64,000 bases of DNA from an uncultured Gemmatimonadales bacterium (lineage in GTDB: Bacteria; Gemmatimonadota; Gemmatimonadetes; Gemmatimonadales; Gemmatimonadaceae): the NCBI GenBank assembly GCA_963701965.1, contig OY969695.1:2752001-2816000 (forward strand), written 5' to 3'. How positions within the stretch are numbered: position 1 is the first letter of the stretch; each line of letters starts with the position of its first letter. A program made the translations under genes and the position numbers. Below, piece by piece: positions 43,327-52,831 of the stretch. Below the pieces are notes generated by a model. That model searched no databases. It saw nothing but the letters and a program-made list of their open reading frames with translations, and had not been told where the DNA came from.

Positions 43327-43331
43327 TGCGA

Positions 43332-43363
43332 AAAGTCTCCGAGGAGAAATCCTCGGAGACTTT
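43332..43363. terminator. Perfect 14-bp hairpin; likely bidirectional terminator between ada and the minus-strand tRNA cassette
   Basis: AAAGTCTCCGAGGA-GAAA-TCCTCGGAGACTTT. Confidence 0.85.
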
Positions 43364-43384
43364 CACTACGTGGTGGAAATTAAC

Positions 43385-43415
43385 CACGCCGGCTTGACAA
43401 GTGCCACGAATGTAT
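43385..43415 (-). repeat. Anti-anticodon box of cassette 1
   Basis: 43389-43402 is the exact reverse complement of 43505-43518 (anticodon arm); context CATAcATTCgtGGCAC-N12-CGTGG. Confidence 0.85.
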
Positions 43416-43461
43416 GCAATCGCACCGGCGCGGTCAACCGGTAGTTTGGCGCTAACTAGCG

Positions 43462-43545
43462 TGCCCGGAGCGGGACTCGAACCCGCACGACCTCGCGGTC
43501 GCCGACTTGTCAAGCCGGTGTGTCTACCAATTCCACCATCCGGGC
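43462..43545 (-). tRNA. Type II tRNA with tRNA-Leu body and GAC (Val) anticodon
   Basis: GCCCGGA TG GTGG AATTGGTAG ACAC A CCGGC TT-GAC-AA GTCGG CGACC-GCGA-GGTCG T GCGGG TTCGAGT CCCGC TCCGGGC A. Confidence 0.9.
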
Positions 43546-43654
43546 ACTCTTCGCGATGGACGGAATTGGATGTTGCGACACGAGCTTCGACTGTCGTTCG
43601 CCACTAGCTAGCGGTGGCGAATCTCGCGCTACGTGAGGCGCGCGTCGTCATCGT
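43546..43654 (-). ncRNA. Conserved structured leader of tRNA cassette 1
   Basis: Blocks shared with 52484-52588: ACGATGACG, ATTCG, CGCTAGYTAGTGGCG, CGTGTCGCARCATCCARTT and AGAGT. Confidence 0.65.
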
Positions 43655-52483: not shown

Positions 52484-52588
52484 ACGATGACGGCTAGCGG
52501 CTCGAAGTGGAGATATTCGAGTCGCTAGTTAGTGGCGTGCAATGAGTGAGCCCGTGTCGCAGCATCCAGTTTCATCCGCGTGTAGAGT
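52484..52588 (+). ncRNA. Conserved structured leader of tRNA cassette 2
   Basis: Homologous to the reverse complement of 43546-43654. Confidence 0.65.
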
Positions 52589-52672
52589 GCCCGGATGGTG
52601 GAATTGGTAGACACGGCAAACTCGCAAATTGCCGACCGTAAGGTCGTGCGGGTTCGAATCCCGCTCCGGGCA
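52589..52672 (+). tRNA. Type II tRNA with tRNA-Leu body and CGC (Ala) anticodon
   Basis: GCCCGGA TG GTGG AATTGGTAG ACAC G GCAAA CT-CGC-AA ATTGC CGACC-GTAA-GGTCG T GCGGG TTCGAAT CCCGC TCCGGGC A; A31-A39 mismatch. Confidence 0.88.
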
Positions 52673-52710
52673 CGCTAGCTAGCGCCACATTGCGCGTCGC
52701 TTCCTGGTTT

Positions 52711-52743
52711 CATAGATTCAAGGCACTTGCGAGTTTGCCGTGG
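52711..52743 (+). repeat. Anti-anticodon box of cassette 2
   Basis: 52727-52742 TTGCGAGTTTGCCGTG is the exact reverse complement of 52612-52627; context CATAgATTCaaGGCAC-N12-CGTGG. Confidence 0.88.
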
Positions 52744-52776
52744 CGAGCCCCGGGGAGAGATCCTCGGGGTTCGTTT
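52743..52776 (+). terminator. Terminator-like hairpin after cassette 2
   Basis: GCGAGCCCCGGGGA-GAGA-TCCTCGGGGTTCGT (with GU pairs) followed by a short T run. Confidence 0.7.
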
Positions 52777-52795
52777 GCATCGGAGCGTGTGCGGC

Positions 52796-52831
52796 TTGAC
52801 TTTCGGGATATCTTCGGGTAGCGTTAGAGCG
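52796..52831 (+). promoter_or_regulatory. Sigma70 promoter for a probably leaderless radical SAM gene; TTCGGG-N5-TTCGGG repeat in the spacer
   Basis: TTGACT-17 nt-TAGCGT; GTG start 7 nt after the -10. Confidence 0.6.

Follow-up and report, generated by a model that had tools for sequence, protein, structure and literature searches.

Two tRNA genes in the window analysed here (the whole stretch of DNA studied, 64 kb) are each enclosed by a leader and a trailer that can pair over 12 nucleotides, which raises the question of what such an arrangement is for. A first-pass annotation had offered several answers: a helix that shields the 3' processing site, a nuclease-activated switch, or a near-palindromic DNA-binding or recombination site. 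By comparing the two loci with each other, with their homologues and with canonical tRNA-Leu genes, we arrive at another one, in which this clamp is one part of a larger module. What can be read directly from the sequences is the anatomy of the module, the Leu identity elements of its tRNA, covarying pairings of the leader with the D arm and with the trailer, and a copy-specific antisense segment behind promoter-like sequence. The reading that we prefer, at a probability of about 0.6, is that of an RNA-only toxin-antitoxin module, whose toxin would be a tRNA that causes mistranslation and is kept as a misfolded precursor, and in which a small antisense RNA would serve as antitoxin.

Anatomy of the module

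Alignment of the two window cassettes exposed a promoter, 14-17 nt of antisense sequence and a hairpin behind each trailer. The order is weak promoter, clamp strand, leader, tRNA-Leu body, clamp strand, sigma70-like promoter, antisense and terminator-like hairpin, the enclosed 162-164 nt consisting of leader and tRNA. Three copies are present in this genome; the third (Leu body with CGC at G000:C1:2559322-2559405) follows the same plan with its own clamp and antisense. The features of the two window copies are as follows.

Cassette 2
52487..52492, + strand: possible -35 hexamer of a putative weak precursor promoter with a poor -10
52523..52534, + strand: clamp 5' strand
52554..52573, + strand: leader segment complementary to the D arm; the fold extends the pairing to the anticodon arm and the acceptor 5' strand
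52589..52672, + strand: class II tRNA-Leu body with Ala anticodon CGC at 52623-52625
52673..52684, + strand: clamp 3' strand, from position 74
52690..52718, + strand: sigma70-like promoter TTGCGC-17-TAGATT for the antisense RNA (below the scanner cut-off, found with a looser pattern)
52726..52742, + strand: antisense, 17 nt perfectly complementary to its own D-stem/anticodon arm
52743..52777, + strand: GC-rich terminator-like hairpin with a short T tail (not called by the scanner)

Cassette 1
43646..43651, - strand: possible -35 hexamer of a putative weak precursor promoter
43602..43613, - strand: clamp 5' strand
43562..43581, - strand: leader segment complementary to the D arm
43462..43545, - strand: tRNA-Leu body with Val anticodon GAC (43511-43509), without encoded CCA
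43450..43461, - strand: clamp 3' strand, from position 74
43409..43437, - strand: sigma70-like promoter TTGACC-17-TACATT for the antisense RNA
43371..43401, - strand: antisense, with an anticodon-arm part at 43401-43385 (one mismatch) and a D-arm part at 43381-43371
43331..43364, - strand: hairpin resembling a terminator, with a T tail and pointing at the convergent Ada gene (missed by the scanner)

The promoter and terminator scanner found one of the two internal promoters and neither of the two terminators. For cassette 2, a small RNA of about 52724-52780 is predicted, and the 5' clamp strand lies near the predicted transcript start. The -10 of the precursor promoter is clear in four homologous cassettes (L034, L032, L035 and L037). 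A 14-bp imperfect inverted repeat (window 52493-52529; 52493-52506 with 52516-52529) stretches across the cassette 2 promoter and takes in the clamp 5' strand. It is conserved in L003-L005, L370 and L374, and could act as an operator or, in read-through transcripts, tie up the clamp strand.

The enclosed RNAs are tRNA-Leu bodies with other anticodons

ARAGORN labels the window tRNAs as Val and Ala; the bodies of both are class II tRNA-Leu. The same genome also encodes ordinary tRNA-Ala(CGC) and tRNA-Val(GAC) and a full set of Leu tRNAs. Homologues were collected by DNA search of 61 relatives, by pattern in 401 genomes of the phylum (15 with a match) and by a GTDB scan (at least 120 rows). Among the matches listed, at least 46 distinct full-length missense Leu bodies assigned to Gemmatimonadota served as the test set and 17 canonical Leu tRNAs as controls; L076 (a near-copy of L018), exact duplicates and matches not parsing as full tRNAs (truncated or intron-containing) were left out. 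For the permutation tests L055, which has no antisense, was also removed, leaving 45 cassettes. A held-out set was obtained through a Val-anticodon pattern (matches in 13 of 301 genomes, giving 11 new loci with 10 full tRNAs, 9 of them flanked, two near-identical), and a metagenome scan gave 7 loci, of which 6 parsed and 3 were new.

The missense bodies carry A73 (46/46), U8 (45/46), U48 (45/46) and C2-G71 (43/46), and neither G3.U70 nor an encoded CCA (0/46 each). The tRNA-Leu identity elements A73, U8-A14, A15-U48, G18G19, A20a, U54-A58, C2-G71 and a long variable arm are in place, the D-loop letters being fixed by the search pattern and as such no independent test of Leu identity. In cassette 2, A73, A15-U48 and the long variable arm are present, G3.U70 and an encoded CCA are absent, and A31.A39 is mismatched. 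Bacterial Leu identity is described as resting on A73 and the core, with the anticodon not used (PMC9976931; PMC2377443).

The anticodons of the 46 bodies are CGC (19), GGC (9), GCG (7), GAC, CTC and AGC (2 each) and five others, found once each. Codons ranked 1, 2 or 4 in this genome are read by 35 of the 46, a count in which kin are not independent and which GC bias may explain. Copies with a Val anticodon, cassette 1 included, are presumably possible substrates of ValRS (A35, C36, A73), and could be charged by it and be harmless.

The anticodon loop has 7 nt, with U33 in 43/46 (C33 in the other 3) and A37 in 45/46. In the 35 of 45 rows that were aligned, compensatory change upholds 20 of the 25 cloverleaf pairs, and acceptor and T-stem are 7/5 in all 35. 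The anticodon stem is hypervariable, with mismatches at 27-43 and 31-39 in some copies. In a tree of 63 tRNA bodies without the anticodon arm, the few columns do not separate one origin from several. An Rfam search of the module returned tRNA (RF00005) as sole match.

Several further tRNA loci were noticed. L055 and L324 are missense tRNAs without antisense. Leu bodies with TGG (Pro) and no antisense occur at L075, L079, L094, L184 and L055, in Acidobacteriota, a planctomycete and one Gemmatimonadales genome. At L052/L109:451-560 the unit is decayed, the 5' half of the tRNA running straight into its antisense with the middle deleted, and L369 has a second, broken tRNA body nearby. The own genome further holds a degenerate tRNA-Val(GAC) copy (G000:C1:1809504-1809573) and a separate Lys/Arg/Pro tRNA cluster near tRNA-Sec (346014-346345).

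The leader and the trailer can form a covarying helix

The clamp claimed for both cassettes was recovered: leader 52523-52534 with trailer 52673-52684 in cassette 2, and leader 43613-43602 with trailer 43461-43450 in cassette 1, each form 12 contiguous pairs, two of them G.U, and both helices are present in the minimum free energy fold. The whole-unit folding z-scores of the two window cassettes are -3.4 and -4.1. In both, the trailer starts at position 74, as had been stated, A73 being 52672 in cassette 2 and 43462 in cassette 1. The clamp 12-mer has 7 matches with at most one mismatch in the window, against 0.62 expected, a count equalled by none of 100 shuffles, and its exact motif occurs in the 5.1-Mb genome at these four sites only. 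The C/T change between the cassettes had been described as reciprocal with pairing kept, which is correct, but it is not compensatory: because strand position 7 pairs with G6 of the opposite strand, it consists of two one-sided shifts between G-C and G.U. Moreover, since the motif is near-palindromic, two cassettes alone cannot separate a direct repeat from a helix, which homologues can.

Across the homologues, pairing exceeded permutation. At register 49-65, the helix of a cassette's own leader and trailer has a mean of 6.44 bp, compared to 4.72+/-0.21 for permuted trailers (45 cassettes) and 3.8-4.7 bp at other registers and in canonical tRNAs; by energy the values are -13.8 for own and -10.4 for permuted trailers, with a null result in the control window. 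Clamps that are not palindromic still pair (L037, L040, L056 and L372). An alignment of 24 rows, hand-picked and hand-registered at the start, contains both-side changes at 7 of 9 pairs (31 cells), a result reached in 0 of 500 shuffles; a control slid by +3 has 32 both-side changes but 47% pairing, that is far fewer pairs. From these sequences, the clamp covaries at fixed spacing among homologues. Its length differs: at least 8 pairs are formed in just 24% of cassettes, and 10-12 pairs are confined to this genus. The 9 held-out Val-anticodon cassettes, with shared trailers and 2-6 bp, show no excess (4.44 compared to 4.45 permuted).

These data bear on the proposal that the near-palindrome is a DNA element, be it an operator, a recombination site or a target duplication, with incidental RNA pairing. 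Such an element might look like what is seen in this genus, where the motif reads as direct repeat and palindrome alike and, in cassette 2, forms part of the larger inverted repeat across the promoter. Its sequence, however, is not conserved: the third copy and most homologues differ and yet still pair. The motif encloses part of the module only and is found nowhere else in the genome. Three congeners have a cassette at the site of cassette 2, which is empty in G002 and G005; these two empty sites keep no copy of the motif, where a single one would be expected of such an element. We regard this explanation as scarcely credible.

As for the suggested shielding of the 3' processing site, the helix does cover position 74 onward; its 10-12-bp form is limited to this genus. 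C74, which may hinder RNase Z, is present in 44/46 missense Leu bodies and in 4/17 canonical Leu tRNAs. We conclude that the clamp is real, that it overlies the 3' processing site and that it probably protects both ends. An outer tRNA or minihelix with a CCA of its own was also considered and rejected: CCA follows the clamp in both window cassettes and in L003-L005, and is absent from the third copy and most others.

The leader as candidate lock of the precursor

The leader also pairs with the D arm. In an unfitted 35-row alignment, 91% of the cells of these helices are paired and 17 both-side changes occur, equalled in 0 of 500 shuffles. Pairing of the leader with the anticodon loop is weaker (-8.2 compared to -7.0+/-0.3), and RNAalifold on the 35 rows returned the cloverleaf alone, without the leader helix. 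In both window cassettes folding favours the leader-paired form over the cloverleaf, by 9-11 kcal/mol; the clamp is present either way and is in silico compatible with the cloverleaf. Removal of the trailer in silico leaves these tRNAs locked, and removal of 45 nt of leader frees them. This modelling points to the leader, rather than the clamp, as the better candidate for the main lock. The idea that the clamp is a nuclease-activated switch is modified accordingly: because loss of the trailer does not free the tRNA and loss of the leader does, the clamp is more likely an end-protecting, 3'-blocking part of the precursor than the switch itself. In the read-through fold of cassette 2 it is replaced by antisense pairing in cis.

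Folding energy was dropped as proof of locking when the canonical-tRNA control failed. The acceptor-stem probability is below 0.1 in 25 of the 45 cassettes and also in 10 of the 17 canonical tRNAs with their own flanks, which gives no discrimination; since canonical tRNAs, too, are disrupted in silico by random flanks, the test is a weak one.

A copy-specific antisense behind the trailer

A sigma70-like pattern downstream of the tRNA was found in 42/46 missense and 0/17 canonical Leu tRNAs under loose settings, and in 38/46 and 0 under strict ones. The antisense behind it is typically about 15-20 nt long and complementary to the anticodon arm of the same tRNA. Pairing of this arm with its own downstream antisense reaches -31.3 kcal/mol, compared to -17.5+/-0.55 after permutation, and the own tRNA is the best partner in 40/45. 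The held-out Val set replicates this (-28.1 compared to -17.6, strong in 8 of 9, L324 being the one without). Specificity is also seen within this genome, where each of the three predicted small RNAs favours its own tRNA by about 10 kcal/mol among 62 tRNA calls; the energy with the true tRNA-Ala(CGC) is -17.8, compared to -32.9 with the own partner.

In the 42 of the 45 cassettes with an ungapped match, 125 of the 126 cells for the three anticodon bases are Watson-Crick pairs. Transitions over the whole duplex divide into 23 wobble-compatible and 21 incompatible ones, and at positions 28-37, a stretch chosen post hoc, into 19 and 2. Cassettes at the orthologous site of cassette 2 carry either CGC or CGG, and their antisense switches in step; two of the new metagenome loci belong to this site, with CGG and a matching antisense.

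The RNA could also be a tRNA mimic that does not decode, a stable scaffold or a decoy for a nuclease, an RNA-repair protein or a synthetase, with the antisense as switch or cargo. The hypervariable anticodon stem with its mismatches, the lack of an encoded CCA and two copies beside Rsr, one of them between Rsr and RtcB, are what such a mimic could look like. The RNA nevertheless retains the canonical 7-nt loop and all Leu identity elements, and nowhere is the antisense more exact than at the three bases of the anticodon, which together points to decoding as the activity that is blocked. A mimic is in our judgement distinctly unlikely.

Alternatively, the roles may be reversed, with the small RNA acting against a host tRNA, or the whole may be an attenuator, in which a tRNA-like RNA in the leader of a downstream gene controls termination; phage P4 CI RNA and T-boxes are precedents of such control. 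The downstream unit does have the stronger promoter and a terminator-like hairpin, and the downstream ORF is co-directional at 14 of 35 loci. It is convergent at 18 and unclear at 3, its functions are unrelated, and pairing of the small RNA is much weaker for the true tRNA-Ala(CGC) than for its own partner. Reversed roles are very unlikely on this evidence.

Genomic context and distribution

The module sits among unrelated, varied neighbours and its presence is patchy. No integrase, transposase, synthetase or Cas families were detected among the 61 of 98 flanking ORFs scanned, nor Cas families among 37 window ORFs, and Pfam gave no match for ORFs overlapping the cassettes (ORFs of at least 90 aa listed). 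In four congeners the Ada gene lacks a cassette behind it. Several of the neighbouring genes belong to DNA or RNA repair: Ada, a radical SAM repair protein, uvrA (twice), mutS, Rsr and RtcB. The cassettes L040:1354-1669 and L008:1379-1686 lie directly behind Rsr (Ro60) on the opposite strand, that of L040 between Rsr and RtcB. Y RNAs usually sit in that place beside Rsr.

A direct repeat, TTCGG-N6-TTCGG (window 52800-52816), overlaps the promoter of the radical SAM repair gene. It is present twice upstream of lexA (L327, G000:C1:4877022+), has a weaker copy before recA and 16 exact sites in the genome, and is also found at the empty sites in L360 and L364; we consider it a candidate SOS box of this lineage. 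SOS control of the precursor promoter was tried and rejected, the box not being enriched upstream of cassettes (8/45 compared to 5.2+/-2.2).

The context is relevant to a reading with the same anatomy, in which a tRNA released under stress would diversify or stress-prime the proteome, without arrest or killing, as a controlled device of sub-lethal mistranslation. A chromosomal location without mobile-element genes among the flanking ORFs scanned and the neighbouring repair genes would suit it, and tRNA-ProX of Streptomyces is described as a precedent of encoded mistranslation (PMC11415595). On the other hand, there is no fixed choice of which amino acid is replaced (Ala, Arg, Val, Pro, Glu, Asp, Ser), not even at a single orthologous site, the SOS-like box shows no enrichment, and patchy presence with copy-specific antisense is better explained by addiction. 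We therefore hold the sub-lethal reading to be unlikely, and retain the toxin-antitoxin module.

Outside the phylum, among the matches listed, a downstream antisense is present in 4 of 6 planctomycete rows and in 1 of 23 viral rows (L215), and at z <= -4 in 0 of 32 other non-Gemmatimonadota rows that parsed, including proteobacterial Leu bodies with CGC. The planctomycete antisense targets the 3' anticodon stem and the variable arm, and there is no clamp. Analogous units of tRNA, promoter and antisense were noted at L093, L112, L116, L179 and L180 (Planctomycetota), L129/L332 (Dehalococcoidia) and L215 (viral contig); their antisense aims at the variable arm and no clamp was seen, L093 and L129 being judged by eye only. 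The planctomycete matches L341-L343 contain no such unit by eye, and a viral scan with the genus-type leader pattern gave 0 matches. Leu-type tRNAs with CGC, GGC, GGA, GTC or CTC also occur in proteobacterial marine MAGs (L086, L090, L097, L107, L108, L135, L146, L150 and L185). They have extended variable arms and mostly an encoded CCA, stand two in tandem at L090, lack a downstream antisense in those that parsed, and possibly form a separate family of missense tRNAs.

Proposed mechanism

In the toxin-antitoxin model, transcription from the weak promoter would give a precursor whose leader is paired to the tRNA's 5' half and whose clamp fastens position 74 onward to the 5' end. Locked in this way, the precursor would be stable and escape RNase P, 3' trimming and CCA addition. 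Cleavage within the leader would allow the cloverleaf to form and the tRNA to mature, after which LeuRS, ignoring the anticodon, would charge it with Leu, to be inserted at very common Ala, Arg, Val, Pro, Asp or Glu codons. The anticodon arm would be neutralised by pairing, either with short antisense RNA that the internal promoter supplies in excess or, on read-through transcripts, with the antisense sequence in cis. Once the antisense runs out, by loss of the module or transcription shut-off, the stored precursor would yield toxin.

We infer from the sequences described above that both promoters are active, that the precursor is locked and then activated by cleavage of its leader, and that the tRNA is charged with Leu, mistranslates, is toxic and is neutralised. 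Two of these steps draw on analogy. The locking model borrows from AapA1/IsoA1, where the AapA1 toxin mRNA is described as inert through a 5'-3' long-range helix until processed and the antitoxin as binding the processed form alone (PMC5416894); the presumed toxicity borrows from allo-tRNAs, missense tRNAs that killed E. coli upon induction (PMC5389517).

Should the model be correct, tRNA genes can serve as toxins and small RNAs as dedicated anti-tRNAs, neither of which was found in the literature searched. It would account for 'wrong-anticodon' tRNAs that annotation tools call Ala, Val or Arg, explain in a testable way how missense tRNAs that look lethal can persist in genomes, a matter left open for allo-tRNAs, and offer a natural switch of about 300 bp for control of any engineered tRNA. 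Toxicity aside, the covarying tRNA/antisense pair is a real RNA module, uncatalogued in Rfam beyond its tRNA.

Comparison with known systems

By anatomy both components are RNA, as in RNA-RNA toxin-antitoxin systems, a label that we take to be type VIII. Canonical tRNA-Leu (RF00005) shares with the module the body, D-loop, variable arm, A73 and A15-U48; the anticodon, conserved leader, clamp, C74, downstream promoter and antisense set the module apart.

A literature search, with most subscription journals and supplements outside its scope, found no description of the module. A preprint on tRNA-tRNA complementarity deals with canonical E. coli tRNAs (10.64898/2026.09.02.748885). PMC5389517 presents the allo-tRNAs of soil bacteria, which are likewise class II missense tRNAs, have diverse anticodons, are toxic in E. 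coli and were tied by the authors to toxin-antitoxin neighbourhoods. They have 8/4 or 9/3 acceptor/T-stems and Ser or Ala identity, whereas the tRNAs of the module have 7/5 stems and Leu identity. The words 'antisense', 'complementary' and 'leader' have 0 occurrences in the main text of that paper, the supplements of which could bear on allo-tRNA flanks. The Streptomyces pair tRNA-ProX/ProRSx (PMC11415595) also combines the body of one amino acid with the anticodon of another. It has its own synthetase, none of which lies beside the cassettes among the 61 of 98 nearest ORFs, and the part of that paper drawn on here describes no antisense RNA or locked leader.

CreTA, as described in the part of PMC8501985 consulted, resembles the module in that both parts are RNA and toxicity acts on translation through tRNA. 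There, CreT sequesters a rare tRNA by means of a mini-ORF and CreA, derived from a CRISPR repeat, represses transcription together with Cas proteins; here, the predicted toxin is itself a tRNA with which the antitoxin pairs directly, and neither such a mini-ORF toxin nor a Cas-dependent antitoxin was found, the scanned flanking ORFs containing no Cas genes.

Closest in regulatory logic are type I systems, of which hok/Sok and tisB/IstR are named alongside AapA1/IsoA1 (PMC5416894). From the account in that source, AapA1/IsoA1 has in common with the module several paralogues per genome and a short antisense RNA, predicted in the module, that pairs with the active form. A stable toxin transcript, kept inactive by a 5'-3' helix until it is processed, would be a further likeness, for which the module offers covarying helices but neither a discriminating energy control nor a clamp above permutation in the held-out set. 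At sequence level, the predicted small RNA of the module is complementary to the putative toxin transcript, as a type I antitoxin would be. Unlike type I toxins, the predicted product is a tRNA without a toxin ORF, the conserved signal of the enclosed RNA being a cloverleaf and not a small protein. Unlike IsoA1, the antisense is in tandem, on the same strand and separately promoted rather than an overlapping transcript of the opposite strand, and folding suggests that removal of the 5' leader, not 3' trimming, unlocks the module. The tRNA/anti-tRNA pair is a new part, and with a logic like that of type I the module could be called a far variant of it. We lean, by a little over even odds, towards a new RNA-only class, in which the toxin would be a Leu-charged tRNA with a swappable anticodon, kept as a clamped, misfolded precursor, and the anti-tRNA would re-evolve with every anticodon switch; such modules would spread and duplicate in Gemmatimonadota and have analogues in Planctomycetota and on at least one viral contig.
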